Assembly (NCBI RefSeq): GCF_000406145.1
Contig: NZ_CM001976.1
Coordinates: 1,814,961 to 1,831,960, forward strand
Direction of reading: 5' to 3'
Origin: Dickeya dadantii NCPPB 898
GTDB lineage: Bacteria > Pseudomonadota > Gammaproteobacteria > Enterobacterales > Enterobacteriaceae
DNA length: 17,000 bases
In this document: positions 1 to 17,000 of the stretch, one piece after another
How positions within the stretch are numbered: position 1 is the first letter of the stretch
How the letters are laid out: each line of letters opens with the position of its first letter
The notes under the pieces: generated by a model
What the model saw: only the letters and a program-made list of their open reading frames with translations
Database searches by the model: none
Told to the model about the DNA's origin: nothing
Made by a program: the position numbers and the translations under genes

Positions 1-10
1 AAATAAACCA

Positions 11-169: not shown

Positions 170-259
170 AGCACCCCTTGTAACCGTTAAAATGTGGAAT
201 TGAAGGTTACATGTTATTATGGTAACCTGTCAAAATGATTTTACAAGTTACGGTTGTGT

Positions 260-1111: not shown

Positions 1112-1140
1112 TTGTTATTGATTCTTAAAAATTTTATAAA
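1112..1140 (+). promoter_or_regulatory. candidate sigma70 promoter for the TetR-DUF1348 unit
   Basis: TTGTTA (1112-1117), 17-nt spacer, TATAAA (1135-1140), in an AT-rich stretch about 80 nt upstream of the TetR start. Confidence 0.3.
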
Positions 1141-1190
1141 TGCATCCTGACGGTACGCAAAAAAGATTATCGACTAACACTTGACGGAGG

Positions 1191-1206
1191 TAGAACGATC
1201 ATTCTA
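1191..1206. promoter_or_regulatory. candidate TetR operator (16-bp near-perfect palindrome)
   Basis: TAGAACGATCATTCTA versus its reverse complement TAGAATGATCGTTCTA: 14/16 positions are symmetric. It lies between the candidate promoter and the ATG at 1217. Confidence 0.35.
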
Positions 1207-1216
1207 CCATTATCTC

Positions 1217-1783: not shown

Positions 1784-1846
1784 CAGGGGCTGAGTTCCAA
1801 AGAGAAAACACTAACTGAAGTATCCAATTATCCTGGAGGCACCACC

Positions 1847-2323
1847 ATGTCCGATTCACAAATCCGTCCGCCACTGCCGCCGTTCACCCGCGAGTCAGCG
1901 CTTGAGAAAGTAAGACTTGCCGAAGATGGCTGGAACACCCGCGATGCCGATAAAGTGTCGCTCGCTTACTCTCTGGACACCAAATGGCGTAACCGCGCAG
2001 AGTTTGCAAATAATCGAGAAGAGGCCCGGGGTTTCCTCGAGCGCAAGTGGAAAAAAGAGCTGGAGTACCGTCTTATCAAGGAACTGTGGGCCTTTGACGG
2101 TGACCGCATTGCTGTCCGGTACGCTTACGAGTGGCGCGATGACTCCGGTAACTGGTTCCGTTCTTACGGGAACGAAAACTGGGAATTTGGTGAAGACGGG
2201 CTGATGCATCACCGCTACGCATGTATCAATGACATGCCGATTAAAGAAAGTGAGCGCAAGTTCCACTGGCCTCTGGGGCGCCGTCCTGACGATTATCCAA
2301 GCCTGTCTGACCTGGGTCTGTAA
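1847..2323 (+). CDS. DUF1348 / NTF2-like (SnoaL-fold) family protein
   Basis: 158 aa. It carries the conserved strings WNTRD...WRNRAEF...[10 protein letters not shown]...[30 protein letters not shown] that I recognise from DUF1348 proteins. GGAGG at 1835-1839 lies 7 nt before the ATG. It sits 63 nt downstream of the TetR gene (likely operon). Confidence 0.8.
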
Positions 2324-2530
2324 TTCATTGAGTTACCCCGCGTAACGCCCGCGACTACTGTCCTGGTCGGGGCTTTACTCAGCCAGTTGATGAAAAAAGC
2401 AAGCTGGTTGAGGCGGAGAGCTCTTAAGTTTTCTCAGTGCATGGTTTTTAAGGATCAAGTACGAGCGATGTGCTTTATTCATTTAAATCGCGTGCTATTT
2501 AATAGTAAAATATGTTAATGAGGCCGTATT

Positions 2531-3538
2531 ATGAATATTAAATCTATGTTTCTGACTGCCGCAATGGCGGCCGTCTCAGCCAACAGCTTTGCCGATGCTT
2601 CACAGCCAGAGCGTCACGTGCAGGAATTTCTCAGTGCCCTGAACGGCGCCGGGGGTAAGCCTATTGAACAGCTGTCTCCACGGGACGCACGACAGGTGCT
2701 GATCAACGCTCAGAAGGGTGCCAAACTGCCTGCTGCCGACGTCGCTGAAAAAACGATCAACGTTGAAGGCGGCTCCATCAAACTTCACATTGTGAAACCT
2801 AATAACGCACAGGGAATCTTGCCAGTTTTCATGTTCTTCCATGGCGGTGGCTGGATACTGGGCGACTTTGCGACACATGAACGACTCGTCCGTGATCTGG
2901 TCACCGAGTCCGGTGCAGCAGCCGTCTTTGTCGACTATACACCATCGCCGGAAGCGCATTTCCCGGTTGCGATTAATCAGGCCTATGCAGCAACCCGCTG
3001 GGTTGCCGAGCACGGTAGCGAGATTGGCGTTGACGGCAGTCGCCTGGCGCTGGTAGGTAACAGCGTCGGCGGTAACATGGTTGCTGCCGTAGCGCTCCAG
3101 GCCAAGCAACATAAAGCGCCGGCCATCCGCTATGAGGTCATGCTCTGGCCCGTGACTGACGCGAACTTCAATACTGGTTCTTATAACCAGTATGAGAACG
3201 GGTACTTCCTGTCGCGTAATATGATGAAGTGGTTCTGGGATGCATACACCACTAAAGAAGGCGATCGTAATAACATCCTGGCGTCGCCGCTGCGCGCAAC
3301 GCCTGAACAACTGAAGGGACTGCCGCCCACTCTGATTCAGACTGCCGAACTTGACGTACTGCGCGACGAAGGCGAGGCTTTTGGCCGCAAGCTTGATGCC
3401 GCTGGCGTCAACGTGACGGTTACCCGCTACAACGGGTTAATTCATGATTTCGGTCTGCTGAACGCGCTGAGCGACGTGCCTGCCGTGCGGACCGCACTTG
3501 GTCAGGCCGCCTATGAACTGAAAGAACACCTGAAGTAA
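2531..3538 (+). CDS. secreted alpha/beta-hydrolase fold-3 (hormone-sensitive-lipase family) esterase/lipase
   Basis: HGGGW oxyanion motif (2840-2854). GNSVGG nucleophile elbow with Ser codon at 3062-3064. Downstream acid ELDVLRDEG and His in GLIHDF. N-terminal signal peptide MNIKSMFLTAAMAAVSANSFA/DA. GAGG lies 7 nt upstream of the ATG. Confidence 0.9.
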   Translation: MNIKSMFLTAAMAAVSANSFADASQPERHVQEFLSALNGAGGKPIEQLSPRDARQVLINAQKGAKLPAADVAEKTINVEGGSIKLHIVKPNNAQGILPVFMFFHGGGWILGDFATHERLVRDLVTESGAAAVFVDYTPSPEAHFPVAINQAYAATRWVAEHGSEIGVDGSRLALVGNSVGGNMVAAVALQAKQHKAPAIRYEVMLWPVTDANFNTGSYNQYENGYFLSRNMMKWFWDAYTTKEGDRNNILASPLRATPEQLKGLPPTLIQTAELDVLRDEGEAFGRKLDAAGVNVTVTRYNGLIHDFGLLNALSDVPAVRTALGQAAYELKEHLK

Positions 3539-3549
3539 CTGCCAGCTAG

Positions 3550-3578
3550 CCGGTCGGTTTCATCGACCGGTCGTTTTT
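3550..3578 (+). terminator. rho-independent terminator of the esterase gene
   Basis: CCGGTCG (3550-3556), 7-nt loop, CGACCGG (3564-3570), followed by TCGTTTTT. It starts 12 nt after the stop codon. Confidence 0.6.
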
Positions 3579-3754
3579 GCCCTCTGTCCGTTGTCCGGGT
3601 TAGCGCGGAAATTTTTTGGAACCGGACTATTGAGTATTTACATACTTCCCCCCGTTAAGCGTGCGACCTGTTACTTATCGGGGGCTTTTTTCGACACAGT
3701 AATAACGACAAGGAGCCGATTGTACGGCATGCCGTTCCGCTGCAGGTAACGAAG

Positions 3755-4479
3755 TCATATACCTGTCTGGCGGTAGCGTGACTCGAGTTTGTCGAGAAAA
3801 GTGAATAATGCTCTGTTCATTTCGCTGTAGTCGTGGCTCCGTAATTCTTCCGGTGTCTGAACGAATCGATATTCTGCGGCCCGACGTAAATCCCTGTCGG
3901 AATGCGCGATCAGCAATTCGACAAGGGACGGTGTAAGTTCCATATGGCACTGAAACCCGTAGACCAGCTCAGAATAAGCAACTATCTGTCGTGGGCAACC
4001 TTCGCTGTAGGCGACGATCTCCGCCGCGGGCGTAAGTCCCGGCATGTCGTTATGCCAGTGCCCGACATCGAGCTTATTACCGAAGTGAGAAAACAGCGGG
4101 TTCCGTTCGCTTTCTGCGGTCATAAAAACTGGAAACTTGCCGATCTCTTTTTCCGGGCTGTGCGCGAAGCGTGCGCCCAGGGCTTCCCCGATCAGCTGGG
4201 CACCAAGGCAGACGCCGATGACGGCTTTCCCCAGATGTACTACAGAGGCAATAAGTGCCTGTTCAGCTCTTGAGTCAAAATGTGCACATTCATCAGGCGT
4301 GACGGACGGATCCTGCGGCCCCCCATGACTACCAGCAGATCGATATTCCGTGCATCTTCAGGAAGTTTCTGACCCGCATAAACGCGAGAGAAGGTTACCT
4401 CATGGCCACGAATCATGGCCCAGGTTTCAAACACGCCGGGTGCTTCAAAGTGTTCATGCACAATAAAATGTACTCGCAT
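3755..4479 (-). pseudogene. class-I (GMP-synthase-like) glutamine amidotransferase, single 1-nt frameshift
   Basis: ORFs 4240..4479(-) and 3755..4123(-) belong to one gene. The N-terminal frame reads ...NIDLLVVMGG, then shifts. My translation of the other frame from about 4316 gives QDPSVTPDECAHFDSRAEQALIASVVHLGKAVIGVCLGAQLIGEALGARFAHSPEKEIGKFPVFMTAESERNPLF..., which includes the catalytic G-x-C-x-G-x-Q motif (GVCLGAQL) and runs directly into the 122-aa ORF. One nucleotide is missing in the tract ATGGGGGGCC (plus-strand C6 run 4319-4324). The restored length would be 242 codons. Confidence 0.85.
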
Positions 4480-4569
4480 AGGCTTATATCCTTCAGAATC
4501 TTGATAAGTAATTAAGTCAGGCGCATATCACCCCCTGCGAAATACCGGTCGGGTAACGCCAGTCGGGAC

Positions 4570-5364
4570 ATGATAGATGTGAGGTTTGATTTTGAAATGT
4601 CAGTAAGCATCGATAAAACGCCAAGGCACGATGACTCAACAGGCTGGTCGGCGACCGCTATTTCCTACCGGCGTGGGGAAGAAGATCCCCCTCATTATCA
4701 CCTGGAAGGGCAACTTTTATACGCTAGCAGCGGCGTTCTGCTGGTTGAGGCCGCGGGCAGGCGATGGGTTATTCCCCCTCAACGGGCGCTCTGGCTGCCG
4801 CCGTTGATGGAACACTCATACAGACTTCTGTCGCGTACGGAGCTACGTGCAGTTTACTTCAGCGGTAGCCTGATTTCTGAGTGCGCACATTTCGCAAAGA
4901 ATGACCGGGTACATGTGATCGACGTGGTTCCGCTGGTAAAGGAATTAATAGCTGGCCTGTTTATAAATGATTACCACACGCTGACGAAGCGAAAAATGGC
5001 GCTTTTACTTCTGGAAATTATCGGTGAGGCACCATCCGTACCCGCAGAACTACCGATGCCGCAGGATGACCGATTATTCCGTGCTATAGGAGAGCTGATG
5101 TCCAGCCATCGCTGGGAAACCTCGTTAACCGATATGGCTGACATAGCAAACATGTCGGAAAGGTCTTTCTCCCGCCTGTTTTCACGTGATACGGGGTTCA
5201 GCTTCCGGACATGGAAGCAGCGCGCAAGAATATACGCATCACTGGATCTTCTTTCTGAAAACGTACCTGTAAAACAGATTGCCTGGCAGCTTGGTTTTTC
5301 ATCACCGGCCGCATTTTCCGCTGCGTTTCGTGCAGTTATGGGCCTGACTCCCGGTGAGTTTTGA
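4570..5364 (+). CDS. AraC family transcriptional regulator (cupin-like N-terminal sensor + HTH)
   Basis: The C-terminus LTDMADIANMSERSFSRLFSRDTGFSFRTWKQRARIYASLDLLSENVPVKQIAWQLGFSSPAAFSAAFRAVMGLTPGEF is a typical AraC double HTH. It is divergent from the amidotransferase. An alternative start is the ATG at 4597 (MSVSIDK). Confidence 0.9.
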   Translation: MIDVRFDFEMSVSIDKTPRHDDSTGWSATAISYRRGEEDPPHYHLEGQLLYASSGVLLVEAAGRRWVIPPQRALWLPPLMEHSYRLLSRTELRAVYFSGSLISECAHFAKNDRVHVIDVVPLVKELIAGLFINDYHTLTKRKMALLLLEIIGEAPSVPAELPMPQDDRLFRAIGELMSSHRWETSLTDMADIANMSERSFSRLFSRDTGFSFRTWKQRARIYASLDLLSENVPVKQIAWQLGFSSPAAFSAAFRAVMGLTPGEF

Positions 5365-5495
5365 CGGAGGTTCAGTTGGGGGGACGGTGACAAATCGGGT
5401 ATTGACGCTATCCGGCACAGTGTCGATGCTGACGCCGCGACTATCAGGTGTTAAACGAAAAGAGACGGAACACACCGCGACTGAAAACGTAGGCG

Positions 5496-5518
5496 GCCCG
5501 GCTTTTCAGTCGCCGGGC
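5496..5518 (-). terminator. possible terminator hairpin downstream of cynS
   Basis: GCCCGGC (5496-5502), 9-nt loop, GCCGGGC (5512-5518). On the minus strand a short TTTT follows only about 9 nt after the stem, so it is weak as an intrinsic terminator. Confidence 0.35.
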
Positions 5519-5533
5519 TGAATTCTGAGAGGA

Positions 5534-6004
5534 TCAGAAAGGTTTGGTCGGCAGGTACTTGCCGTCCAGGGTGATCACCGCACGATGGCCACCATCCGGA
5601 TCATCAACTTTCTTGATATCCAGTTTGAAGTTAATGGCGCTGATAATGCCGTCGCCAAATTTCTCATGAACCAGAGCCTTAAGAGTAGGCCCGTAAACTG
5701 ACATCATCTCGTAGAAACGGTAGATTGTCGGATCGGTCGGGATGCCATCGGTAAAGCTGCCGCGGACGGGTACTGACTGCAACAGTTTAACGTCATCAGC
5801 ATTCAGATCGAGCTTCTTGCCGACAACGACTGCTGCGTCGGCAGGCAACGGATGCTGACCAAGCAGGGCTGCAGTAACGAAGGCTTCTGACAAACCTGTG
5901 CCGTCAACGATTTCGGAGAAGGAGAGTTCCTTGCGTGCCTTAGCCAGAATAATGGTTTCGGTGAGTGCCTGACGTGCGGCCTGAGTGACTTGAATCTGGA
6001 TCAT
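5534..6004 (-). CDS. cynS: cyanase (cyanate hydratase)
   Basis: 156 aa, collinear with E. coli CynS as I remember it, for example ...[22 protein letters not shown]... and the C-terminal [44 protein letters not shown]. Confidence 0.97.
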
Positions 6005-6031
6005 GGTCTTTTCTCCTGGTAAGTAAGGGGT

Positions 6032-6382
6032 TCAGGCAACATGCCTGGCTTGCGAGGAAACGGCGTTAACTTCTGGATTTTCAGCAAGGGACACGAAGGC
6101 GCGGGTTGTGCCATCAAAAGTATCAATGCAACCACTCCCAATGTCATAGAGCCAGCCGTGCAGAGTTACCCGGCCTTCTTCAAGCGCCAGGCGAACGGAT
6201 GGGTGAGTCTGGATGTTAGCCAACTGAGCGATGACGTTTTCGCGCACCATAGCCGCGACTTTGGTTGGCTGATCCGGATGAGGTCGGGATTCGTTCACGA
6301 CTCTGGCCGAGTCAGCATATAGCAGCCAGTTGGCAACGGCGGGCATATGATCCAGACACTTGCAGGTGGCGATGGCCGTCAT
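6032..6382 (-). pseudogene. cynT: beta-class carbonic anhydrase CynT, 5'-truncated (C-terminal ~116 of ~219 residues)
   Basis: [35 protein letters not shown]...[33 protein letters not shown] matches the E. coli CynT segment that follows ...CGHSNCGA. The upstream part, with the Cys/His/Cys zinc ligands, the promoter and cynR, is absent. Homology stops at about 6383, where trbF-like sequence begins. Confidence 0.9.
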
Positions 6383-6385
6383 TGA

Positions 6386-6633
6386 ACGAGTCCGTCACGG
6401 TGCAGATTGCCAGTGTGGTGCGCTCCAGCGATCGATCGTTTGAAGTGCGCTGGAGCGAACAACACTTTGCCCAAGGCACTCCGTCGGAGACCGAACGCTG
6501 GACTGCCATGCTGACCGTTGTGCAGCACACGCCGCGTACCGAGCAGCAGTTACGGCTGAATCCGTTGGGCGTCTATATCAACGGCCTGTCGTGGAGCCGG
6601 GAACTGGCGATGCCGGAAGGCGGTCAGCCATGA
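6386..6633 (+). pseudogene. trbF: 3' fragment of conjugal transfer gene trbF (VirB8-like), last ~82 codons
   Basis: [28 protein letters not shown]...ERWTAMLTVVQHTPRTEQQLRLNPLGVYINGLSWSREL resembles the conserved TrbF C-terminus (..V.V.SVVR.SD.SFQVRW.E.......RWTAILTV......... .NPLGLYV....WSREL). The first ~40 codons of ORF 6265..6633 are antisense cynT sequence, not trbF. Confidence 0.75.
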
Positions 6634-6795
6634 GAACGTGGTGGTATTACGGTCCTGTCTGTTACCTGATACTGGCACTGATCGGGTGTCGTGGTATGGG
6701 AAACCGGCCACCGGTTGTCGATCTGGACGAGCCGGCTCCGACAGCCTCGGTTCCGATGCCTCCGGCCTCCATAGTGGTGGGGAAGGGGGAGAACG
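6630..6795 (+). pseudogene. trbG: 5' fragment of trbG (VirB9-like): signal/lipobox N-terminus only
   Basis: The ATG at 6630 overlaps the trbF stop (ATGA), as in trbF-trbG-trbI operons. MRTWWYYGPVCYLILALIGC has a lipobox-like LIGC, followed by a Pro-rich NRPPVVDLDEPAP...VPMPP. The frame then runs into trbI-derived sequence in another frame. Confidence 0.45.
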
Positions 6796-7347
6796 GAGCG
6801 CCTTCGTTCCGACCTGCCGGGGCCGGTGATCGCCACCGTCACCGAACCGGTCTACGACACGGCGACCGGGCATTATCTGCTGATCCCGCAAGGCTCGCGC
6901 TTACTGGGTAAATACAATAGCCAGGTCAGCTATGGGCAAAGCCGGGTTCAGGTGGTCTGGAACCGCATTATCCTGCCGGATACGTCGTCGCTGACGCTGG
7001 ATAATCTGGCCGGTGCCGACCCGGCCGGTTACGTCGGGCTGGAAGATCAGGTGGACTGGCATTGGGATCGTGTGATTGCCGGCGCGGCAATGACCACACT
7101 ACTGGGGGTGGGTGCTGAACTGGCTGCCCCGGAGAACCGACAGCATGGCGATCGCATTATTCTTGCCGGACGTGACAGTTTGCAGGATTCGGTCAGTCAG
7201 GCGGGACAAGAACTTACCCGGCGTAACCTCGATATTCAGCCGACACTGACCGAACGGCCAGGCCTGCCGGTTCGTATCATCGTCAACCGGGATTTGGTGT
7301 TAAGGCCGTATCAACCGCTGTTTTTTAATCAGGGGAGTGCGAACTGA
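6796..7347 (+). pseudogene. trbI: 3' portion of trbI (VirB10-like), about 180 C-terminal codons, no start
   Basis: The frame of ORF 6826..7347 is open from 6775. (L)RSDLPGPVIATVTEPVYDTATGHYLLIPQGSRLLGKYNSQVSYGQSRVQVVWNRIILPD...GADPAGYVGLEDQVDWHW...IQPTLTERPGLPVRIIVNRDLVL is the conserved TrbI/VirB10 C-terminal domain. Confidence 0.85.
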
Positions 7348-7360
7348 AGGGGGAATGGAC
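7102..7360 (+). repeat. left copy of direct repeat (trbI 3' end + 13 nt past the stop)
   Basis: 7117-7360 aligns gap-free with 15858-16101 (offset 8741). I count 14 mismatches in 244 nt. Weaker similarity extends to about 7102 versus 15844. Confidence 0.95.
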
Positions 7361-7458
7361 GGTGGGGAAAGAGAGGCCCGATACTGGGGAGGCAATTCGG
7401 AATATTACTCATTCCCTGTATTCAGTGCCGACGTAGAGTAGAGTTTTCGGCCTCTCTC

Positions 7459-7606
7459 ATCGTAAAAAAAGAAGTCATCCGGCAGAGAAAGACGCGTTAT
7501 ACCGAAGAGCAAATTGTGTTTGCCCTGAAGCTGGCCGAAACCGGTACGCGGGTGGAGGAAGTCTGCAGAAAGATGGGGGGTTTCTGAAGCCACATTTTAC
7601 AACTCC
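7459..7606 (+). mobile_element. fragment of an IS3-family transposase orfA (HTH_Tnp_1 type), frameshifted and 3'-truncated
   Basis: My translation from 7459 gives IVKKEVIRQRKTRYTEEQIVFALKLAETGTRVEEVCRKMG, then (after one extra G in the G6 run 7575-7580) VSEATFYN. This matches the ..R(F/Y)TEEQI...LK.AE.G..V.E.CRK.G(I/V)SE.TFY.WK.K pattern of IS3-family OrfA proteins. No orfB and no clear terminal inverted repeat are present. Confidence 0.6.
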
Positions 7607-7618
7607 AGGAGTCCATAC

Positions 7619-10600
7619 ATGCGATACGACACCATCCCTGCACAAGCGATACGCCATGACAGCTCCCGGATGGATGGAGAGCAATGGCCACTCAGCTCTC
7701 CTCAGCAGGTCATATGGTTGGAGCAAATACTTCACCCAGACTCCAGTCACTATAATCTGGGCCTGCTCTATCGTATTGAGGGCAGGCTTGATCAGGCACT
7801 GTTCGTCCAGGCGGTAGAAATTTCTGTGGAGCGCCACGATGCGCTGCGCCTGCAACTTAAAGAGATCAATGAGCCCATTCAGGTACTCTGTAACAGCGCG
7901 CCTATCCCGACTCGTATCCACGACCTGTCTGGTTGCACAGACCCGGAAGCTGAGCTGGATAAACACGTCAACGCCCTGGTTAGGCAGGCGTTTGACTTAA
8001 CAGGGCAACTCTGGCGTTCTGACTTGCTGCGGATTAGCGAGTCGTGCTGGTATTGGCATTGTTGCTGTCATCATTTGATTCTGGATGGTCGTAATATCAT
8101 CCTGATTATGAGAGAGGTTGCGGATACGTATACCCGCTTGATCAATAAAGTGGGTATGGCGGAACGAGCGCCATCCTACCTCGATTTTATTACAGAGGAT
8201 CTCGCCTATTTCCATTCAGCGGGCTATAGCCAGGACCGGGATTTCTGGTTGGAGCGTTATGCAACGCTGCCCCCAATACTCATTCCTGCAAATAGTACTC
8301 ACATGAGTCATGAGGTGTCCGAGTCACCGCTACGTTGGCAGCTTGAGGCACCGCTATTAAAAACCATCGAGGCAATGCTTAATGAACACCGCCTATCGCT
8401 GTTGCACTTTATGTATGCGTTGTTGGCATGCTACTTCACGCGAACGACGGGTGAGCGGGACATCGTCATTGGTATTCCGGTGCATAACCGTCGTAACGCC
8501 AGGCAAAAAAATACGATAGGGATGTTCGCATCCGTCATTCCTGTGAGGATTTGCATAGCGGATCAGGATACATTCCTGGATGTGATGCATAAATGTGCAA
8601 GCGAACTGCGAAAGTGTCATAAACATCAACGCTTTCCTATATCGGAAATCAATCGTCACACTAGAGTCCAGCAAAAGACTGGACGTTCTCAGCTATTTGA
8701 TATTTTGCTATCGCTGGAGTTGTTCGAAACGAATGCGTCAATGGAGTACTGTAGTATTAGCCTGGTCGGGGTGCATCGCGGCACTTCCAATCCGCTTGCC
8801 ATCAGTATTCAACAATACAAGTACTCCCAAGATGATGACAATACGCCTGTTACCATTGAGTTCAGTTGTGCACCAGGCCATTTGAGCAAGATGGAGGTCG
8901 AGGCGCTACAGCGACGGCTGAGCGTGTTATTAGGGGCAGCGCTTCGTGGTCCAGATACGCTGATTAACCACTTATCGATGTTATCTGACGCCGAGCGTCG
9001 GCAATTACTGGCCGACTTCAATGCGACGCAGGCGGCGTTCCCGCAAGAGACGCTGCTCCACCAGCTGTTCGAAGGGCAGGTCGGGCAGACGCCGGACGCC
9101 ACCGCGGTGGTCTTTGACGGGCAGTCGCTGAGCTATGCTGAACTGAATGCCCGCGCCAATCGCGTTGCACACAGCCTGATTAGCCTGGGCGTGCAGCCGG
9201 ACGAACGGGTGGCAGTCTGTGCAGAGCGCAGCCTGGAGATGGTGGTGGGTATCCTGGCGATCCTCAAGGCCGGTGGCGCGTATGTGCCGCTGGATCCGGC
9301 ATACCCTTCAGCGCGTCTGGCGTATATGCTCGCGGATGCACAGCCGGTGGCGCTTCTCACGCAAAGGGCGTTGCAGGCAAACCTGGGTTCAGACCTGCCG
9401 ACACTGCTGCTCGATGCCGACATGGGCAGCACAGACAGCGACAACCCGGTTGTTCCGGGCCTGAGTGCCAGGCACCTTGCCTATGTGATCTACACCTCCG
9501 GATCGACCGGGCAGCCCAAAGGGGTGGCGATGCAGGCTGCGGCACTCCTGAACTTATTATATTGGCATCGACAAGAACCGTCATCGATCACGATGGCAGA
9601 CAAAACATTACAGTTTGCAGCACTGGGGTTTGACGTTGCCTTTCAGGAAATATTCGCAACATTAAGCCAGGGGGGATCGCTGGTCTTGATCCGTGAAGAG
9701 ACGCGACGGAACCCTTTGGCAATACTGCATTTAATTGAGAAAGAACACATCACACGGATATTTTTGCCTTACATTGCATTACAGCAACTGGCAGAAACCA
9801 CTAATCTGCAGACCATTAATTTAAAATGTTTAAAACACATTGTTACTGCCGGTGAGCAGTTACACATTACCCCCGCTATACGCAAGCTATTACAAGCTAA
9901 CCCGCATTGCCAATTACATAACCATTATGGCCCGAGCGAAACACATGTCGTTACGAGCTATATTCTGAATTCACCCAGTGAGTTAAACATCAGTTTTCCG
10001 CCCATTGGCCGACCGATCGCCAACACCCGGATCTACATCCTCGACCCGCATGGCCAGCCGGTTCCGGTGGGTGTCAGGGGGGAAATCCACATCGCCGGCG
10101 CCGGCGTTGCCCGGGGCTATCTGAACCGCCCGGAACTCACCGCTGCGCGCTTCCTGGCGGATCCGTTCGCAGGCCAGCCCGGTGCGCGGATGTACCGAAC
10201 CGGGGATCTGGGACGCTGGCTGCCGGATGGCACGATCGAATACCTGGGCCGTAATGACTGCCAGGTCAAAATCCGGGGCTTCCGTATCGAACCCGGAGAG
10301 ATCGAAGCGTGTCTGGTACAGTGCGCCGGCGTGCGCGAAGCGGTGGTGATTGCACGCGAAGACAGCCCGGGTGACAGGCGTCTGGTGGCCTATCTGGTCG
10401 CGGAAGCCGGTATCCTTCCCGAACCCGCCGGGCTGCGTCAGGCGCTGGCGCAGCAACTGGCGGACTATATGCTGCCGTCGGCGTATGTGCGGCTGGATGC
10501 GCTGCCGCTGACGCCCAACGGCAAGCTCGATCGCCACGCCTTGCCCGCGCCGGATCAGGGCGCGGTGGTCAGCCGGGGCTATGAGGCGCCGGCAGGCGAG

Positions 10601-10717
10601 ATTGAAACGGCGCTGGCGCAAATCTGGCAGGATGTGCTGGGGGTGGCGCGCGTCGGACGGCACGATCACTTCTTCGAACTCGGCGGGCATTCGCTGCTGA
10701 CTGTCACAGCTGATTGA
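7619..10717 (+). CDS. NRPS segment 1: C1-A1-(N-terminal part of T1)
   Basis: 1032-aa ORF ending ...FFELGGHSLLTVTAD*, only 7 codons after the phosphopantetheinyl Ser codon (10691-10693). Confidence 0.85.
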   Translation: MRYDTIPAQAIRHDSSRMDGEQWPLSSPQQVIWLEQILHPDSSHYNLGLLYRIEGRLDQALFVQAVEISVERHDALRLQLKEINEPIQVLCNSAPIPTRIHDLSGCTDPEAELDKHVNALVRQAFDLTGQLWRSDLLRISESCWYWHCCCHHLILDGRNIILIMREVADTYTRLINKVGMAERAPSYLDFITEDLAYFHSAGYSQDRDFWLERYATLPPILIPANSTHMSHEVSESPLRWQLEAPLLKTIEAMLNEHRLSLLHFMYALLACYFTRTTGERDIVIGIPVHNRRNARQKNTIGMFASVIPVRICIADQDTFLDVMHKCASELRKCHKHQRFPISEINRHTRVQQKTGRSQLFDILLSLELFETNASMEYCSISLVGVHRGTSNPLAISIQQYKYSQDDDNTPVTIEFSCAPGHLSKMEVEALQRRLSVLLGAALRGPDTLINHLSMLSDAERRQLLADFNATQAAFPQETLLHQLFEGQVGQTPDATAVVFDGQSLSYAELNARANRVAHSLISLGVQPDERVAVCAERSLEMVVGILAILKAGGAYVPLDPAYPSARLAYMLADAQPVALLTQRALQANLGSDLPTLLLDADMGSTDSDNPVVPGLSARHLAYVIYTSGSTGQPKGVAMQAAALLNLLYWHRQEPSSITMADKTLQFAALGFDVAFQEIFATLSQGGSLVLIREETRRNPLAILHLIEKEHITRIFLPYIALQQLAETTNLQTINLKCLKHIVTAGEQLHITPAIRKLLQANPHCQLHNHYGPSETHVVTSYILNSPSELNISFPPIGRPIANTRIYILDPHGQPVPVGVRGEIHIAGAGVARGYLNRPELTAARFLADPFAGQPGARMYRTGDLGRWLPDGTIEYLGRNDCQVKIRGFRIEPGEIEACLVQCAGVREAVVIAREDSPGDRRLVAYLVAEAGILPEPAGLRQALAQQLADYMLPSAYVRLDALPLTPNGKLDRHALPAPDQGAVVSRGYEAPAGEIETALAQIWQDVLGVARVGRHDHFFELGGHSLLTVTAD
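7685..8980 (+). other. C1: N-terminal condensation domain (no upstream carrier domain in cis)
   Basis: WPLSSPQQVIWLEQILHPDSSHYNLG (C1-like motif). Active site HHLILDG at 8069-8089. IGMFASVIPVRI and HQRFPISEI (C5/C6-like motifs). Confidence 0.8.
8985..9526 (+). repeat. intragenic repeat A, copy 1 (C-A linker to A3 motif of module 1)
   Basis: Aligns gap-free with 12235-12776 (offset 3250). I count 8 mismatches in 542 nt. Confidence 0.95.
9030..10540 (+). other. A1: adenylation domain, extracted code D-V-Q-F-V-A-H-V-V-K (proline-like)
   Basis: Motifs LSYAELNARAN, LKAGGAYVPLDP, YTSGSTGQPKGV, FDVAFQE, NHYGPSE, GEIHIAGAGVARGYLNRPELT, YRTGDLGR, GRNDCQVKIRGFRIEPGEIE, NGKLDR. Code positions were placed by hand alignment to GrsA-PheA (235,236,239,278,299,301,322,330,331,517). 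Confidence 0.8.
10004..10692 (+). repeat. intragenic repeat B, copy 1 (IGRPIANT... through A6-A10 to the GGHS of T1)
   Basis: Aligns with 13221-13910 (offset 3217, becoming 3218 after the 1-nt indel). I count 23 substitutions plus 1 indel in about 689 nt. Confidence 0.95.
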
Positions 10718-10800
10718 ACGGTTGCGCCGTCTGGAGATGAAACTGGATGTGCGTAGTGTCTTTAGTACGCCTACCCTCAGTGATATGGCACGGGCGATTG
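10580..10800 (+). other. T1: peptidyl carrier domain, disrupted by a +1 frameshift near 10706
   Basis: YEAPAGEIETALAQIWQDVLGVARVGRHDHFFELGGHSLLTV / QLIERLRRLEMKLDVRSVFSTPTLSDMARAI. Skipping one nucleotide at about 10706 restores a canonical PCP. Confidence 0.85.
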
Positions 10801-13800
10801 GCCAGCCGCAAGGGAATACGGGCGCCTTTGTGGCGCCACCGAACCTGATTCCCGATGGGTGTACGGCAATCACCCCAGAAATGCTGCCGTTAGTCGCGCT
10901 CTCCCAGGCGGAGATCGAGACTATCGTTGCGGCCATTCCGGGGGGCGCGGCCAACGTTCAGGACATTTATCCGCTCGCGCCACTGCAGGAGGGGATATTG
11001 TTTCATCACCTGCTACAGCAACAGGGTGATAACTATTTGTTGCGCAGCATCCTGGCCTTTGATTCACGCTCGCGTCTGGATGCCTTCCTCAGTGCCTTGC
11101 AGCAGGTGATCGATCGTCACGATATTCTGCGCAGCAGTCTGTGTTGGCACCACCTGCCCCAGCCGGTGCAGGTGGTATGGCGCCAGGCCAGCTTGCCTGT
11201 GGCCGAACTTCCGCTTGTGAGCGAAGAAGACGCACTGACGCAACTGCAGGCGTACTCGGATCCGCGTACACGCCGCCTTGATCTGGGCCGCGCGCCGCTG
11301 TTCTTTAGCGATATCGCCTACGACGCCAGGCAGGACGAATGGTTGCTGGCGCTGGGATTCCACCACATTGTGACTGATCATATGAGCCTGGAATTGATCG
11401 TCGCGGAGATTGGCGAGATTCAGCAGGGGAGGGGAGCGGGCTTGGCACCCTGCTTCCCCTACCGCCACTTTGTTGCACAAAGCCGCAGTGTGCCAGCGGC
11501 AGTCCATGAGGAGTACTTCCGCAGTCAGTTGCAGGAGGTTGAAGAGCCCACTGCACCCTTTGGCATTCTTGAGCCGACACAGGATAACGCGGAGATTGCC
11601 GAAGCCCGGCTGATGCTGGATAGCGACCTGGCCATGGCCATTCGTCAGCAGGCACGACAACTGGGTATCAGCCCTGGCGTGTTGTTCCATGTTGCCTGGG
11701 CGCAGGTACTGGCGCAAACCAGCGGATGTGACGATGTGGTCTTTGGTACCGTGCTACTCGGCCGTTTGCAAGGGGGGGCCAATGCTGGACAGACGCTGGG
11801 CATGTTTATCAATACGTTGCCGCTGCGTCTGACGCTGGCACAGCAAGGTGTGCTGGAGGTGGTGCATGGCGCCTACCGTCAGTTGATGGTGCTGCTTGAA
11901 CATGAGCAGGCACCATTGTCGCTGGCACAACGCTGTAGCGGTGTTGCGCCGTTACTGCCACTATTTGGTAGCCTGCTTAATTACCGCCATAGTCGTGCAG
12001 CAGAGACTCTACAGGCATGGGAGGGGATGCGAATGCAGTATTTTGAGGAGCGCACCCACTATCCGTTTGCCCTGTTTGTCGACGATCTGGGCCAGGACTT
12101 TAGTCTGACGGCACAGTGTGTATCGGCTATCGACCCGGCACGGCTCAATGCGTATATGCTGACGGCGATGACAGGACTGCTGCAGGCCTTGGCATCGGAT
12201 CCGCGACAGCAAATTCTGAGCATACCGATTCTGCCTGACGCCGAGCGTCGGCACTTACTGGCCGGCTTCAATGCGACGCAGGCGGCGTTCCCGCAAGAGA
12301 CGCTGCTCCACCAACTGTTCGAAGGGCAGGTCGGGCAGACGCCGGACGCCACCGCGGTGGTCTTTGACGGGCAGTCGCTGAGCTATGCTGAACTGAATGC
12401 CCGCGCCAATCGCGTTGCACACAGCCTGATTAGCCTGGGCGTGCAGCCGGACGAACGGGTGGCAGTCTGTGCAGAGCGCAGCCTGGAGATGGTGGTGGGT
12501 ATCCTGGCGATCCTCAAGGCCGGTGGCGCGTATGTGCCGCTGGATCCGGCATACCCTTCGGCGCGTCTGGCGTATATGCTCGCGGATGCACAGCCGGTGG
12601 CGCTTCTCACGCAAAGGGCGTTGCAGGCAAACCTGGGTTCAGGCCTGCCGACACTGCTGCTCGATGCCGACATGGGCAGCACAGACAGCGACAACCCGGT
12701 TGTTCCGGGCCTGAGTGCCAGGCACCTTGCCTATGTGATCTACACCTCCGGATCGACCGGACAGCCGAAGGGGGTGATGGTTGAGCATGCTTCGGTCGTT
12801 AATTTCTTGTCCTCAATGACAACGCAGCCCGGCTTGAGTGCTAATGACAAGTTGTTGGCATTGACGACCTTAAGCTTCGATATTGCTGGACTAGAGCTCT
12901 ATTTGCCGTTGATCAGGGGGGCTCAATGTCTTCTTGTTTCGCATGAAACGAGCAAGCAGGCTGATAAGTTGTGTGGGATGATCGAGCGCCTCAGGCCTAG
13001 TGTGATACAAGCCACTCCATCCACCTGGTCCATGCTTTTGCAGCAGGACTGGATTCCAGGAGCAGGACTTAAAGTGTTGTGTGGTGGTGAAGCAATGAGC
13101 AGCACGCTCAGGCAACAGTTAATAGCGAGTGCTGCAGAAGTCTGGAACCTTTATGGACCGACTGAAACCACAATATGGTCGCTCACATCACGGGTTCTTT
13201 CTATGGAGGGAACCTTGTCAATTGGCCGTCCGATCGCCAACACCCGGATCTACATCCTCGACCCGCATGGTCAGCCGGTTCCGGTGGGTGTCAGGGGGGA
13301 AATCCACATCGCCGGCGCCGGCGTTGCCCGGGGCTATCTGAACCGCCCGGAACTCACCGCTGCGCGTTTCCTGGCGGATCCGTTCGCAGGCCAGCCCGGT
13401 GCGCGGATGTACCGAACCGGGGACCTGGGACGCTGGCTGCCGGATGGCACGATCGAATACCTGGGTCGTAATGACTGCCAGGTCAAAATCCGGGGCTTCC
13501 GTATCGAACCCGGAGAGATCGAAGCGTGTCTGGTGCAGTGCGACGGCGTGCGCGAAGCGGTGGTGATTGCACGCGAAGACAGCCCGGGTGACAGGCGTCT
13601 GGTGGCCTACCTGGTCGCGGAAGCCGGTATTCCTCCCCGAACCCGCCGGGCTGCGTCAGGCACTGGCGCAGCAGCTGGCGGACTATATGCTGCCGTCGGC
13701 CTTTGTGCGGCTGGATGCGCTGCCGCTGACGCCCAACGGCAAGCTCGATCGCAAGGCCTTACCGGCCCCGGATCAGAGCGCGGTGGTCAGCCGGGGCTAT

Positions 13801-13802
13801 GA
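10722..13802 (+). CDS. NRPS segment 2: (C-terminal part of T1)-C2-A2 up to the A9 region; the last ~55 codons are out-of-frame read-through
   Basis: This frame is open from 10701 and encodes (S)QLIERLRRLEMKLDVRSVFSTPTLSDMARAI, the rest of T1. The TTG at 10722 has no Shine-Dalgarno sequence. The tail IPPRTRRAASGTGAAAGG... is the shifted reading of the A2 C-terminus. Confidence 0.8.
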   Translation: MRRLEMKLDVRSVFSTPTLSDMARAIGQPQGNTGAFVAPPNLIPDGCTAITPEMLPLVALSQAEIETIVAAIPGGAANVQDIYPLAPLQEGILFHHLLQQQGDNYLLRSILAFDSRSRLDAFLSALQQVIDRHDILRSSLCWHHLPQPVQVVWRQASLPVAELPLVSEEDALTQLQAYSDPRTRRLDLGRAPLFFSDIAYDARQDEWLLALGFHHIVTDHMSLELIVAEIGEIQQGRGAGLAPCFPYRHFVAQSRSVPAAVHEEYFRSQLQEVEEPTAPFGILEPTQDNAEIAEARLMLDSDLAMAIRQQARQLGISPGVLFHVAWAQVLAQTSGCDDVVFGTVLLGRLQGGANAGQTLGMFINTLPLRLTLAQQGVLEVVHGAYRQLMVLLEHEQAPLSLAQRCSGVAPLLPLFGSLLNYRHSRAAETLQAWEGMRMQYFEERTHYPFALFVDDLGQDFSLTAQCVSAIDPARLNAYMLTAMTGLLQALASDPRQQILSIPILPDAERRHLLAGFNATQAAFPQETLLHQLFEGQVGQTPDATAVVFDGQSLSYAELNARANRVAHSLISLGVQPDERVAVCAERSLEMVVGILAILKAGGAYVPLDPAYPSARLAYMLADAQPVALLTQRALQANLGSGLPTLLLDADMGSTDSDNPVVPGLSARHLAYVIYTSGSTGQPKGVMVEHASVVNFLSSMTTQPGLSANDKLLALTTLSFDIAGLELYLPLIRGAQCLLVSHETSKQADKLCGMIERLRPSVIQATPSTWSMLLQQDWIPGAGLKVLCGGEAMSSTLRQQLIASAAEVWNLYGPTETTIWSLTSRVLSMEGTLSIGRPIANTRIYILDPHGQPVPVGVRGEIHIAGAGVARGYLNRPELTAARFLADPFAGQPGARMYRTGDLGRWLPDGTIEYLGRNDCQVKIRGFRIEPGEIEACLVQCDGVREAVVIAREDSPGDRRLVAYLVAEAGIPPRTRRAASGTGAAAGGLYAAVGLCAAGCAAADAQRQARSQGLTGPGSERGGQPGL
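10962..12230 (+). other. C2: condensation domain with N-terminal HHLxxxxGD motif and variant active site HHIVTDH
   Basis: DIYPLAPLQEGILFHHLLQQQGDNYL (HHLLQQQGD at 11004-11030). HHIVTDH at 11361-11381. LGMFINTLPLRL. Confidence 0.8.
12235..12776 (+). repeat. intragenic repeat A, copy 2 (module 2)
   Basis: See copy 1. Both copies start at CTGACGCCGAGCGTCGG (..DAERR..) and end at ..AAGGGGTG (..PKGV). Confidence 0.95.
12280..13755 (+). other. A2: adenylation domain, extracted code D-I-L-Q-L-G-L-I-W-K (glycine), with a +1 frameshift at about 13630-13638
   Basis: Motifs as in A1, except for the core: SFDIAGLE, LCGGEAM, NLYGPTETTIW. K517 equivalent lies in QVKIRG. Confidence 0.8.
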
Positions 13803-13910
13803 GGCGCCGGCAGGCGAGATTGAAACGGCGCTGGCGCAAATCTGGCAGGATGTGCTGGGTGTGGCGCGTGTTGGACGGCACGATCACTTCTTCGAGCTCG
13901 GCGGGCATTC
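13221..13910 (+). repeat. intragenic repeat B, copy 2 (module 2)
   Basis: See copy 1. Identity ends within the Ser codon of GGHS (TCG versus TCT) in both modules. Confidence 0.95.
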
Positions 13911-15711
13911 TCTACTTGCCGTGCGCCTATTGAACCGTATGCGAGAGGAGGGCCTCGATCTTCCATTAGCCTCTTTATTCACCACCCCAATACTGTGTGA
14001 TTTGGCCATGGTTATCGGTCCGCCTTCTTTTACCCAGTCAAGTTCTCCCTTTGATGCTAATCCGGTACCATTAAGACCAGAAGGCAGTTTACGGCCTTTA
14101 TTCTTGGTACACGAGACCTCTGGTGATCCACTGGTTTATTCGCCGCTGGCAGCCTTACTTCCATCTGAATTACCCGTCTACGTATTACAGGCTATAGGTA
14201 TTCAGAATGTAGCTACTGTACCCGAATCGATTGAGGCACTTGCAGCCTGCCATATCCAGGCCATTCGTCGAGTCCAGCCTCAAGGACCTTACCGCTTTGC
14301 TGGATGGTCAATGGGAGGTGTCGTCGCCTACGAGATAACTGTACAACTGCTTCAGAGTGGTGAGCGTGTCGAGTTCCTCGGTATGATCGATTCCTGTAAC
14401 CACAAAGGACTGGATACAAACCATCTTCAATCGTGTGATGCTCAACAGGTCTCTCGTGAAATGTTCATTAAAGCGTTGGTTGAAAACTTTGATGTCAGCG
14501 TCGAGCAAGTGACAGGGTTGTGTCAGATCGCGGATCTCGATCAATTGGTGGATCGTTGTATTGAGCTTTCCTATCTCCCTGCAGATATTTCACGTGAGGA
14601 TGTTTTAGTGCGTATCAATACCATTGAAACCCTGACACGCCTGTTACAGCGTTATACACCATCAGCATCACAGGTTCCTATCTACCTTTATACAGCGGAA
14701 GAGGCATTGAGTGACGATGTTTGGAGGGGTTGGCGTGATCTTGTGGATAGTCATTCTCAGCTTCGCTCTATAGGAGGAACCCATGGATCAATCATGCGCC
14801 AGCCCTTACTAAGTCAATTGGCTGATGCCATAAGAGAAGATTTGCTGCCGAAGCATGGCTATAATCCGTGCGTTATCATTCAGCGTGGCTCACCATCTCG
14901 CCTTCCACTGTTTTGTATCCCAGGTGCCGGGGCTAGTGCTTTCAGCCTGCTGGAACTGGCTTTGTCGTTGCCAGCGTCGTTGCCGGTCCATGCCCTGGAG
15001 GCGCCAGGTCTGGCTGATGCGCGGATAGCACCGTATAACAGTGTTGAAAGCTATGCGCGAGCTTATACGCAAAAGATCCGTCAGACGCAGGCTCACGGAC
15101 CTTATCATCTCCTCGGCCATTCCTTTGGGGGCTGGATCGCCTTTGAAATCGCTCTTCAACTGCAAGAACATGGGGAAAGCGTTGCTAATTTGATGCTAAT
15201 TGATAGCGAAGCCCCTGACCCTCAGGGGAGGCCGTCCAAGTCTGTCGACCGTGTTGAGACGCTGATGAAGTTGATTGAGATTTATAATATGACGCTCGAT
15301 CAACCGCTTGGGCTTGTTCGAGAGGATTTTAAGGGCCGAGATGCAGATGCGCAGCTGCAGTTTTTGTTTGCGGTGCTGAAAGGAGCCGGGCTTTTCCCTG
15401 AAAATGCCCAAATCACACTGTTGCAAGGTATCGTCCAAGTGATGCAGGCTAATTTGAATAGCAGTTACACCCCGAGAGCGCGCTTTCATGGTCAGGTTCA
15501 TCTGGTCAGTGCTATGGACAGTGACAGGAGGGAGCGACAAGGCATGGAGTCGGGCTGGAGGAAGCATGTCGAAGAACTGGGGACGCTGGTGGTACCGGGT
15601 AACCATATGACGATGCTATTGAGGCCTAATATAGAGTCGCTGGCAGGTTATTTGTGGCTGCGGCTGGACACAGCCAGTAACTCGGGGATCGTAGGGAAAA
15701 GTTATAAATAG
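13567..15711 (+). CDS. NRPS segment 3: A2 C-terminus (A9-A10)-T2-TE1-TE2; meaningful coding begins at about 13639
   Basis: From [40 protein letters not shown] onward it matches the module-1 sequence. The first ~24 codons ([22 protein letters not shown]) are the wrong frame of A2. Confidence 0.8.
   Translation: [714 protein letters not shown]
13798..14010 (+). other. T2: peptidyl carrier domain
   Basis: [73 protein letters not shown]. Ser codon at 13909-13911. Confidence 0.85.
14089..14850 (+). other. TE1: thioesterase domain
   Basis: [23 protein letters not shown] (Ser codon 14308-14310). LGMIDS (Asp candidate). GGTHGSIM (His candidate). Confidence 0.8.
14902..15660 (+). other. TE2: second thioesterase domain
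   Basis: [26 protein letters not shown] (Ser codon 15121-15123). LMLIDSEAP (Asp candidate). VPGNHMTML (His candidate). Confidence 0.8.
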
Positions 15712-15843
15712 GCTATTGCCCGATTCAGGTGACCTTAACAGGCGAGCCATAATTTTGTCCTTTTATAGTCCAGTCGCTGTCAGACTTGTGTCTTTAACTG
15801 GCTGTATTTAAAGACGCTGTCCTGCTGCTGTCCCATCAAATAT

Positions 15844-16101
15844 GCTGGGGGGGAGTTGAACTCGCTGCCCCGGGGAACCGGCAACATGGCGATCGTATTA
15901 TCCTTGCCGGACGTGACAGCTTGCAGGATTCGGTCAGTCAGACGGGACAAGAGCTCACCCGGCGTAACCTCGATATTCAGCCGACACTGACCGAACGGCC
16001 AGGTCTGCCGGTTCGTATCATCGTCAATCGGGATTTGGTGTTAAGGCCGTATCAGCCGCTGTTTTTTAATCAGGGGAGTGCGAACTGAATGGGGAATGGA
16101 C
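15844..16101 (+). repeat. right copy of direct repeat (trbI 3' end)
   Basis: 15858-16101 matches 7117-7360 with 14 mismatches in 244 nt and no gaps. Confidence 0.95.
15858..16088 (+). pseudogene. trbI: second, shorter trbI 3' fragment (last ~76 codons + stop)
   Basis: Translates ELAAPGNRQHGDRIILAGRDSLQDSVSQTGQELTRRNLDIQPTLTERPGLPVRIIVNRDLVLRPYQPLFFNQGSAN*, nearly identical to the end of the 6796-7347 fragment. It has no start codon and no upstream trbI sequence. Confidence 0.85.
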
Positions 16102-16141
16102 AAGAAGGAACGGAGCAGGGGGGCCTGAATCCTAGGGGTGT

Positions 16142-16453
16142 TTATCTGGAACGGTAGCGTGCCGACACATCCCGGGCGGTATGCAATAGTCGCAAGATAT
16201 GTACGTCGCCGCTGTGGCGTTTCAGCGCATAGACCAAAATAAACGGGAGCCGGGTCAGCACCAGTTTACGTCGTTCTCCCGACTTCCCTATGCTGACGCC
16301 CGCTTCCGGGGTGGTTTCCAGCAGCGCCACTGCGGCGGCGAATTTGTCATCGGTGGCATTGGCGACCTCCAGTCCCGCGTTCTGGTACAGGTAACGGTAA
16401 ATGTCTTCGCGGTCAGCGATAGCTTGCCTTTCCCAACGAACGGTTGCCGTCAC
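16142..16453 (-). CDS. type II toxin, ParE/RelE superfamily
   Basis: 103 aa: (M)TATVRWERQAIADREDIYRYL...LPFILVYALKRHSGDVHILRLLHTARD, typical ParE/RelE size and C-terminal I.R.LH..RD pattern. The GTG start overlaps the upstream stop (GTGA). Confidence 0.75.
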   Translation of the reverse strand: MTATVRWERQAIADREDIYRYLYQNAGLEVANATDDKFAAAVALLETTPEAGVSIGKSGERRKLVLTRLPFILVYALKRHSGDVHILRLLHTARDVSARYRSR

Positions 16454-16734
16454 AGTTCCCCCCGGGCGGCTTGCGCTTTCAGCGCCGCCATACGTTGACT
16501 GGCCTCGTCATTGCTGATGAACTGGGCCTCACCGGCATCGTAACGGGCGAAGGCTTCCTGAATTTTTGCTTCCAGCCATTCATCACCGGTATGGCGCTGA
16601 TACTGTCGCTCTTCCTCGGCCAGTTCTTCCGCACGCTGGCGCATCAGTTCGGTAAGACTGACCTGCTGACGCTCAGCAGCCTTCATGGCCAGACGTTTGG
16701 TTTCCTCGTCAATTCTGAAGTGTATTGTCCCCAT
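16450..16734 (-). CDS. type II antitoxin, ribbon-helix-helix (ParD/DinJ-like)
   Basis: 94 aa. The N-terminal TIHFRIDEETKRLAMKAAERQQVSLTELMRQ looks like an RHH strand-helix-helix. It lies upstream of the toxin and is translationally coupled to it. Confidence 0.65.
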   Translation of the reverse strand: MGTIHFRIDEETKRLAMKAAERQQVSLTELMRQRAEELAEEERQYQRHTGDEWLEAKIQEAFARYDAGEAQFISNDEASQRMAALKAQAARGEL

Positions 16735-17000
16735 AACCGCCTCCGATAGATTGTATGTGTTGTCACTTGTGGTGTCATTTTATCCAATCTCGTCAGTTTT
16801 TGCTGCTTTTTTGAAGGGAGAACCGCCTTTACTGGTGCCGTAAAAAGCTTGTCGAATTCTAAGGATCACAGTGGCGGTTTTGTTGTAGAGGCTAAATAGC
16901 TGCGGCTAATACCGCTACACCTACCGTTTACTGACATGTGGCATGTTGCGTAAGGGCAACACATCCGAGGCCTTATGTAGAACAGCCAGACAGAGAAAAC

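Follow-up and report, generated by a model that had tools for sequence, protein, structure and literature searches.

The 17,000-nucleotide (nt) stretch of chromosomal DNA from the Dickeya dadantii NCPPB 898 draft genome analysed here (contig NZ_CM001976.1, positions 1,814,961 to 1,831,960; the window) carries a disrupted gene for a nonribosomal peptide synthetase (NRPS). We interpret this gene as a short form of a lipopeptide NRPS borne by a Trb-type conjugative element in Dickeya, with a layout and frameshifts that are artefacts in the window, and assign this reading a probability of roughly 0.7. An assembly artefact is indicated because the window has the sequence of strain DSM 18020 yet the structure of strain 3937, and because the draft was assembled under the guidance of the 3937 genome. 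A preliminary description, made from the sequence alone, had viewed the gene as an isolated bimodular synthetase and was partly supported; the gene instead appears to be a short allele of an NRPS with five to seven modules in other Dickeya, carried as cargo by the conjugative element.

The NRPS occupies three long open reading frames (ORFs) on the forward strand, each in its own frame (7619-10717, 10722-13802 and 13567-15711). By exact-sequence look-up, ORF1 is WP_081639288.1 of D. dadantii, to which the proteins of the flanks were likewise assigned. ORF2 (WP_050570236.1) and ORF3 (WP_071604519.1) are both known solely from the one assembly record. Pfam assigned a condensation (C), an adenylation (A) and the first half of a carrier (T) domain to ORF1, a C domain and an A domain without its C-terminal end to ORF2, and a T domain followed by two thioesterase (TE) domains to ORF3. 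Each of the two frame changes amounts to one surplus base (+1 insertions). Removing the A at 10708 and one base at 13630-13634 from the letters as deposited gave a repaired frame of 8091 nt and 2696 codons with a single terminal stop, in agreement with the two frameshifts and the single frame of about 2,696 codons described previously. The domain order given there, C-A-T-C-A-T-TE-TE, was also recovered by calling based on hidden Markov models with Pfam, and the complete core motifs were confirmed in the repaired frame (HHLILDG, HHIVTDH, two copies each of SGSTGQPKG and GGHSL, GWSMGG and GHSFGG), which thus shows the C, A, T and TE order and the intact motifs expected of a type I modular NRPS. 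Alignment of the A domains to GrsA-PheA returned the same specificity codes as before, DVQFVAHVVK (Pro-like) for A1 and DILQLGLIWK (Gly) for A2, and the canonical DAWTIAAICK for the control. For position 331 of the second code, which MAFFT placed wrongly, an ungapped register from the GPTE motif gave W.

As written in the window, the gene would be dead, because T1 is severed after its serine and A2 lacks the A10 lysine. The PP-binding match to T1 covers only profile positions 2-35 in ORF1, with the rest (LIERLRRLEMKLDV...) encoded in the next frame. The extra A at this site is absent in D. dianthicola and 3937, and the DSM 18020 protein (P0201) reads through it. Similarly, the second surplus base does not occur in the corresponding module-1 segment of the window, in four copies in D. 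dianthicola, or in DSM 18020 and 3937. The frame is uninterrupted in 3937 and D. dianthicola. The three ORFs could in principle represent a deliberately split three-protein synthetase or be joined by programmed frameshifting, since they lie in order, with a 4-nt gap between the first two and an overlap between the last two, and are listed as separate proteins in RefSeq. However, the breaks fall inside folded domains and not in docking linkers, all relatives read straight through both sites, and no slippery heptamer is common to the relatives at either site because the surplus bases are simply absent from them. We consider both variants extremely improbable and rejected them based on the intradomain breaks and the absence of the surplus bases from all relatives.

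To place the gene within the genus, we compared it with its relatives in other Dickeya genomes. The 90% cluster that contains ORF1 also includes longer Dickeya proteins of 5899, 5588, 3528, 2937 and 2791 amino acids (aa). The first of these, from D. dianthicola CP051429 (WP_226860741.1), is encoded by an intact single ORF with five C, five A, five T and two TE domains according to Pfam, and its start and end match those of the window NRPS. Its A domains have the codes DVQFVAHVVK (Pro-like), DFWNIGMVHK (Thr), DILQLGLIWK (Gly), DVQFIAQVVK (Pro-like) and DATKIGEVGK (Asn). In D. dadantii DSM 18020 (CP023467) the gene has about seven modules, with the T2-C3-A(Gly) unit present three times, and is annotated in three pieces (5605, 368 and 2029 aa) that reflect two frameshifts of its own at sites other than those in the window. 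Another complete D. dadantii genome encodes the NRPS as 3528 and 3325 aa proteins. Module number thus differs among complete Dickeya genomes (about 2, 5, 6 and 7).

The two-module form is real as an intact allele in strain 3937 (CP002038.1; locus L019, 11021-19108), where it encodes 2695 aa. This locus is colinear with window positions 6440-17000 at 97.66% nucleotide identity, and the repaired window protein aligns to the 3937 protein without gaps at 98.55% identity. Both surplus bases are missing from the 3937 gene, and a 14-nt indel between the two sequences alters the last few NRPS residues. Strain 3937 also has the same trbI stumps, the IS3 OrfA remnant upstream, the ParE/DinJ neighbours, the truncated carbonic anhydrase gene (cynT) and the chimeric second A domain. 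Domain order, motifs and both flanks are shared by an intact gene that differs from the window by 2.3% nucleotide divergence.

Mapping of the window to the long D. dianthicola allele was based on k-mer offsets, since BLASTP alignments run through the A cores and were uninformative. Window positions 6803-12790 correspond to module 1, C2 and the N-terminal flank of A2, positions 12235-13932 to A3 (Gly), and positions 13221-16890 to an A-domain C-terminal flank followed by T5-TE-TE, with T2 of the window located on the D. dianthicola protein (P0205) at offset 3203. Relative to this protein, the window lacks the Thr core-T2-C3 and T3-C4-A4-T4-C5-A5 segments, which together account for about 3200 aa. 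Mapping against the D. dianthicola and DSM 18020 alleles identified the second A domain of the window as a chimera, in which an N-terminal flank corresponding to that of module 2 precedes a core (12777-13220) and a C-terminal flank that correspond to the Gly module of the long alleles. Between the window and the long D. dianthicola and DSM 18020 genes, which occupy the same slot after trbI and before parE, nucleotide identity is 94-100% for the N-terminus, module 1, C2, the Gly A domain and T-TE-TE. Unlike the window, D. dianthicola retains the whole trb operon. The sequence comparisons indicate that the window gene is a short allele of an NRPS family with five to seven modules in Dickeya.

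The origin of the short layout in the window can be examined by comparison with DSM 18020, since NCPPB 898T, CFBP 1269T and DSM 18020T are names of a single strain (PMC9306890) and CP023467 is the DSM 18020 genome (PMC7877592). Positions 1-6384 of the window are 100.000% identical to DSM 18020, as are the unique NRPS segments that were compared (100%), and differences within the NRPS are confined to the repeat edges (8980-9028, 12254-12386 and 13634-13767). A three-way comparison across 6440-16867 gave 181 sites at which the window shares the base of DSM 18020 but differs from 3937, and six at which it shares the base of 3937 but differs from DSM 18020; 16 window-unique sites are clustered. 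Yet the window follows the structure of 3937, against DSM 18020, at two unrelated places. A 16-kb NRPS segment and a 3.3-kb cynT-cynR-AHH segment, the latter holding the cynT 5′ end, cynR, an AHH-nuclease gene and others, are present in DSM 18020 and missing from both the window and 3937. The cynT deletion is common to 3937 and a further locus (L018), both of which have a junction that differs from that of the window at three indel positions. In the window, the truncated cynT is joined to the trbF/virB8 stump at 6373-6384, and this slightly different join lies at an 11-12-nt microhomology, which DSM 18020 carries on either side. Furthermore, bases 8976-9028 are those of the paralogous A-domain copies of DSM 18020.

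The NCPPB 898 type-strain draft is a 454 assembly that was guided by the 3937 genome (PMC3837183). We propose that assembling 454 reads of NCPPB 898 (equivalent to DSM 18020) under this guidance imposed the short layout of 3937 on the window, and the same assembly would account not only for the two-module layout but also for the 3.3 kb lacking at cynT and for both +1 frameshifts. An assembly origin of the layout and the frameshifts is therefore the probable one, given the DSM 18020 sequence, the 3937 structure and the guided draft.

Several observations weigh against this interpretation. Without any N spacer, the window is a single contig, and RefSeq annotates the three NRPS pieces as proteins. 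At 6470-6585 the window has six substitutions of its own, which were not matched by any of the ten related loci compared; they sit in otherwise 100% DSM 18020-like sequence and may derive from reads of a paralogous trbF copy. The DSM 18020 assembly is not error-free either, because its gene has two frameshifts. The proposals made below on product chemistry, acyl donor, Pro epimerisation and an active chimeric C2/A(Gly) pair are predictions from motifs only. Finally, if a laboratory stock had genuinely undergone a deletion between the repeats, the NRPS would have a similar appearance. In this scenario, the short frameshifted gene would be real in NCPPB 898, with a crossover between 542-nt repeats having deleted about 16 kb in the cell, followed by two single-base insertions. 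The repeats are long and 96-99% identical, module number varies among complete genomes, so such events happen, the window is one gap-free contig, and the mismatches left of 12387 agree with a crossover within 12387-12776. However, a deletion in the cell would have to be joined by a second unrelated event: 3.3 kb at cynT must also have been lost, at the position where 3937 lacks it, in a sequence that is otherwise DSM 18020-like at 181 of 187 informative sites. Such a deletion also leaves the paralogue-type bases at 8976-9028 unexplained. In addition, each frameshift is found in one 454 assembly only, and the published assembly method was guided by 3937. We consider the in-cell deletion unlikely and favour the assembly artefact.

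Regardless of how the window acquired its layout, the alleles seem to have diverged through internal repeats. Self-BLAST identified two pairs of near-identical segments in the gene (R1 and R2, Table 1), between which only a 148-159-aa cassette with the specificity pocket differs among modules. The single gap in the alignment of the R2 copies equals frameshift 2. The alleles probably diverged by recombination between these near-identical A-domain flanks, with the specificity cassette of about 150 aa alone staying distinct. A single crossover that joins the module-2 copy of the 542-nt repeat to the copy in the last module would convert the seven-module DSM 18020 gene into the two-module form. 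We also considered two independent deletions from the five-module form and rejected them, as the single crossover from the DSM 18020 form is enough. Extending this, we tentatively suggest, as a possibility that we hold to be somewhat doubtful, that Dickeya contains a natural allelic series (about 2, 5, 6 and 7 modules) of one lipopeptide synthetase borne by an integrative and conjugative element, generated by crossovers in homogenised A-domain flanks that shuffle only cassettes and whole modules. The two-module allele of 3937 would then be a working "module deletion plus subdomain swap" enzyme making an N-acyl-(D)-Pro-Gly lipodipeptide.

Based on its similarity to solved domains, C1, which is N-terminal in every allele, is predicted to be a starter (lipoinitiation) C domain. 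Its best solved relative in phmmer searches is the starter C domain of RzmA (RzmA-Cs; 7C1K/7C1H; E 9e-38, 133 bits), a match that denotes similarity and not orthology and lies ten orders of magnitude above ordinary C domains (best 4e-27); the CDA starter C domain (CDA-C1) scored 2e-23. Starter C domains accept acyl-coenzyme A (acyl-CoA) or acyl groups on an acyl carrier protein (acyl-ACP), and the rzmA and holA clusters have no ACP or ligase genes (PMC7804268). A dedicated loader would not be needed, because a starter C domain can use acyl-CoA or acyl-ACP without dedicated genes, and the donor-loading partner in trans postulated in the preliminary description need not be invoked. C2 has HHLLQQQGD at repaired aa 1129 in addition to HHIVTDH at aa 1248. 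Dual epimerisation/condensation (E/C) domains are reportedly defined, following Balibar and colleagues in 2005, by such an extra N-terminal HH[I/L]xxxxGD motif besides the core His motif. By this motif C2 is likely to be of the dual E/C type; comparison with solved relatives in the PDB is not diagnostic for this assignment. In D. dianthicola, C4 (P0205, at about aa 3300) follows the Gly module and is C2-like with a degenerate YHYLLAESHD instead of HHLLQQQGD, which fits with there being nothing to epimerise after glycine.

We hypothesise that C1 N-acylates the first residue, Pro, from cellular acyl-CoA or acyl-ACP, that C2 would epimerise Pro and then condense it with the next residue, and that the tandem TE pair releases the chain. 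The short allele would thus produce N-acyl-(D)-Pro-Gly, and the long alleles acyl-Pro-Thr-Gly-(Pro-like)-Asn with extra Gly modules in some strains; the five-module product is possibly lactonised through Thr. Since the product would be N-acylated, the Pro-Gly diketopiperazine suggested earlier is unlikely. A true orphan bimodular NRPS with a trans-acting loader, yielding a capped X-Pro-Gly or this diketopiperazine, would be consistent with the intact two-module allele in 3937 and with the lack of accessory genes near the NRPS in any strain examined. However, C1 resembles a starter C domain, which needs no dedicated partner, and the gene is a recombinant of a longer assembly line, as seen in the chimera of modules 2 and 3 in A2 and in its terminal-module T-TE-TE; moreover, the window copy is frameshifted twice. 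We regard the orphan enzyme as very unlikely compared with a short allele of the lipopeptide NRPS.

The flanks of the NRPS identify it as part of a mobile element. D. dianthicola CP051429 encodes an intact traG-trbBCDEJLFGI operon directly upstream of the NRPS and parE/dinJ downstream. Because it directly follows the trb operon and precedes parE/dinJ in this genome, we interpret the NRPS as the terminal cargo gene of a Trb-type element. The adjacent mating-pair operon is present in D. dianthicola and reduced to VirB8/TrbF and TrbI stumps in the window. In other Dickeya (L014, L016 and L020), complete traG-trb operons adjoin parE/dinJ with no NRPS between them, and the conjugative element circulates both with and without the NRPS cargo. 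A 255-nt direct repeat brackets the NRPS in the window and in D. dianthicola and is present as a single copy in NRPS-free loci (L007, L009, L014 and L016), which suggests that the NRPS acts as a cassette that is inserted or deleted between trbI and parE. A Tn4371-like label for the element is suggested solely by trb gene order and by a remark on 3937 (PMC4028081).

The setting in mobile-element debris noted before is borne out by the trbF/virB8 and trbI remnants, the ParE toxin and the IS3 OrfA remnant. The OrfA remnant ends in EEVCRKMGGF and a stop in 3937 and is disrupted in the window by an extra G at 7389. The ParE/DinJ pair, named from Pfam and from annotation of the relatives' loci, is kept at the element's right border in every Dickeya locus examined. 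Pfam matches to the left-flank ORFs comprise a CGNR regulator, TetR, DUF1348, an esterase, AraC, cyanase, the truncated carbonic anhydrase, and the VirB8/TrbF and TrbI fragments. A 122-aa ORF on the reverse strand (3755-4123) has no Pfam match and is a fragment of a class I glutamine amidotransferase by comparison with relatives; the fragment is also found in DSM 18020, and the gene is intact (241 aa) in 3937, L007 and L008. As previously stated, no MbtH, phosphopantetheinyl transferase, transporter, A-T loader or acyl ligase gene was found among the Pfam-scanned flanking ORFs (254-7347); short ORFs at 15780-16843 were read by eye only. LuxR regulators and MacAB/OprM-type exporters are absent from the window and from within 10 kb of the NRPS in D. 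dianthicola, 3937 and DSM 18020. The intact syntenic homologues proposed as a check were found in 3937 and D. dianthicola, while the partner genes that they were expected to retain were not, as no accessory genes lie near the NRPS in any strain examined. Scans for promoters and terminators near the ends of the gene gave nothing above shuffled background. The G+C content is 0.61-0.65 over the A1 C-terminal flank, T1 and C2 (window 10001-11000) compared with about 0.52 in the chromosomal flank, which fits with a foreign origin of the NRPS.

Table 1 Features of the NRPS locus in the window.
Feature	Position	Strand	Description	Basis
trbF/virB8 remnant	6265-6633	+		Pfam VirB8
trbI remnant	6826-7347	+		Pfam TrbI
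Direct repeat of trbI 3′ end	7106-7360 and 15847-16101	+	255 nt; brackets NRPS; 93% identical	
IS3-family transposase OrfA remnant	7362-7587	+	About 30 nt before NRPS start; colinear with 74-aa HTH_Tnp_1 ORF of 3937	
NRPS reading frame	7619-15711	+	Three pieces here; repaired, 2696 aa, predicted Cs-A(Pro)-T-E/C-A(Gly)-T-TE-TE (Cs, starter C)	
C1	7685-9010	+	Condensation domain, predicted starter type; HHLILDG	Pfam Condensation, ORF1 aa 23-464
Internal repeat R1	8985-9526 and 12235-12776	+	C-A linker to motif A3; 98.5% identical	Self-BLAST
A1	9068-10525	+	Pro-like code	Pfam AMP-binding and AMP-binding_C
A1 variable specificity cassette	9527-10003	+		Limits set by internal repeats
Internal repeat R2	10004-10698 and 13221-13916	+	Before A6 to T-domain GGHSLL; 96.3% identical	Self-BLAST
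T1	10610-10810	+	Carrier, cut by frameshift 1; downstream limit approximate	Pfam PP-binding
Frameshift 1	10708	+	Extra A (GTCAC[A]GCTG); about 6 residues past T1 serine (GGHSLL, then TVTAD and stop)	
C2	10956-12260	+	Probable dual E/C type; HHLLQQQGD near N-terminus and HHIVTDH core	Pfam, ORF2 aa 79-513
A2	12318-13750	+	Gly code; chimera; downstream limit approximate	Pfam
Frameshift 2	13630-13634	+	One extra base (ATTC[C]TCCCC); between A9 and A10 lysine	
T2	13828-13989	+	Carrier of the type preceding TE-TE (D. dianthicola module-5 type)	Pfam PP-binding, ORF3 aa 88-141
TE1	14092-14850	+	GWSMGG, repaired aa 2228; limits approximate	Pfam Thioesterase
TE2	14905-15621	+	GHSFGG	Pfam Thioesterase, ORF3 aa 447-685
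ParE-family toxin	16142-16453	-	4-nt overlap with antitoxin	ORF
DinJ/RelB-like antitoxin	16450-16734	-	4-nt overlap with toxin	ORF

Outside Dickeya, the best matches to the NRPS are 40-60% identical and unnamed, with C1-A1-T1 reaching 60% in Xenorhabdus. No characterised homologue was found, and literature searches returned no study of this gene, in keeping with the earlier remark that the architecture and context were not recognised as a characterised pathway. A protein search with modules 4-5 placed all Dickeya matches in a single 90% cluster; outside the genus, the best matches to these modules, at 40-48% identity, include NRPSs of P. syringae, P. viridiflava and P. corrugata as well as an "arthrofactin-type cyclic lipopeptide synthetase C". 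Searching GTDB representative genomes with C1 recovered only 50-51% identical relatives in Brenneria and Pectobacterium, whose genes extend past the compared loci. A megablast search with the NRPS against complete E. coli genomes gave no match, and a plasmid collection yielded the left-flank genes only (85% to an Enterobacter plasmid), plus weak NRPS matches of 71-76%.

The window serves as a warning that reference-guided drafts can impose the gene structure of a relative on repeated NRPS genes, leaving frameshifts at repeat edges, and can thereby create apparently "orphan" synthetases. The more interesting fact is the module-number polymorphism seen across three complete genomes together with the intact short allele of 3937. 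The lipopeptide synthetase family is uncharacterised, mobile and encoded by a single gene, and it occurs in an important genus of plant pathogens. Its intact alleles of differing module number in tractable strains (3937 and D. dianthicola) would allow the effect of recombination at A-domain boundaries on NRPS products to be tested.

The combination of a starter C domain, a dual E/C domain and a terminal tandem TE-TE is a hallmark of the cyclic lipopeptide synthetases of Pseudomonas. With its predicted starter C domain, the window NRPS would share all three with the arthrofactin/syringomycin type, and its two terminal TE domains have GWSMGG and GHSFGG, respectively. However, the Pseudomonas systems comprise three genes with 8-25 modules, whereas the Dickeya gene is single, has 2-7 modules, is borne by a conjugative element, and lacks both the LuxR, MacAB and OprM neighbours and the several NRPS genes of a Pseudomonas-type cluster. 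We conclude from these similarities that the window gene is probably an uncharacterised, Pseudomonas-like lipopeptide NRPS of a well-known kind. RzmA and HolA, which make rhizomide and holrhizin, resemble the window NRPS in their N-terminal C domain and in having no ACP or acyl-ligase gene nearby, but their downstream modules are unrelated to it. An A-domain exchange unit between flanks of this sort has been described for recombination in the hormaomycin and microcystin synthetases and for subdomain-swap engineering. The Dickeya modules share this exchange unit between their flanks and, unlike these subdomain-swap systems, their repeats would also allow entire modules to be gained or lost from strain to strain.

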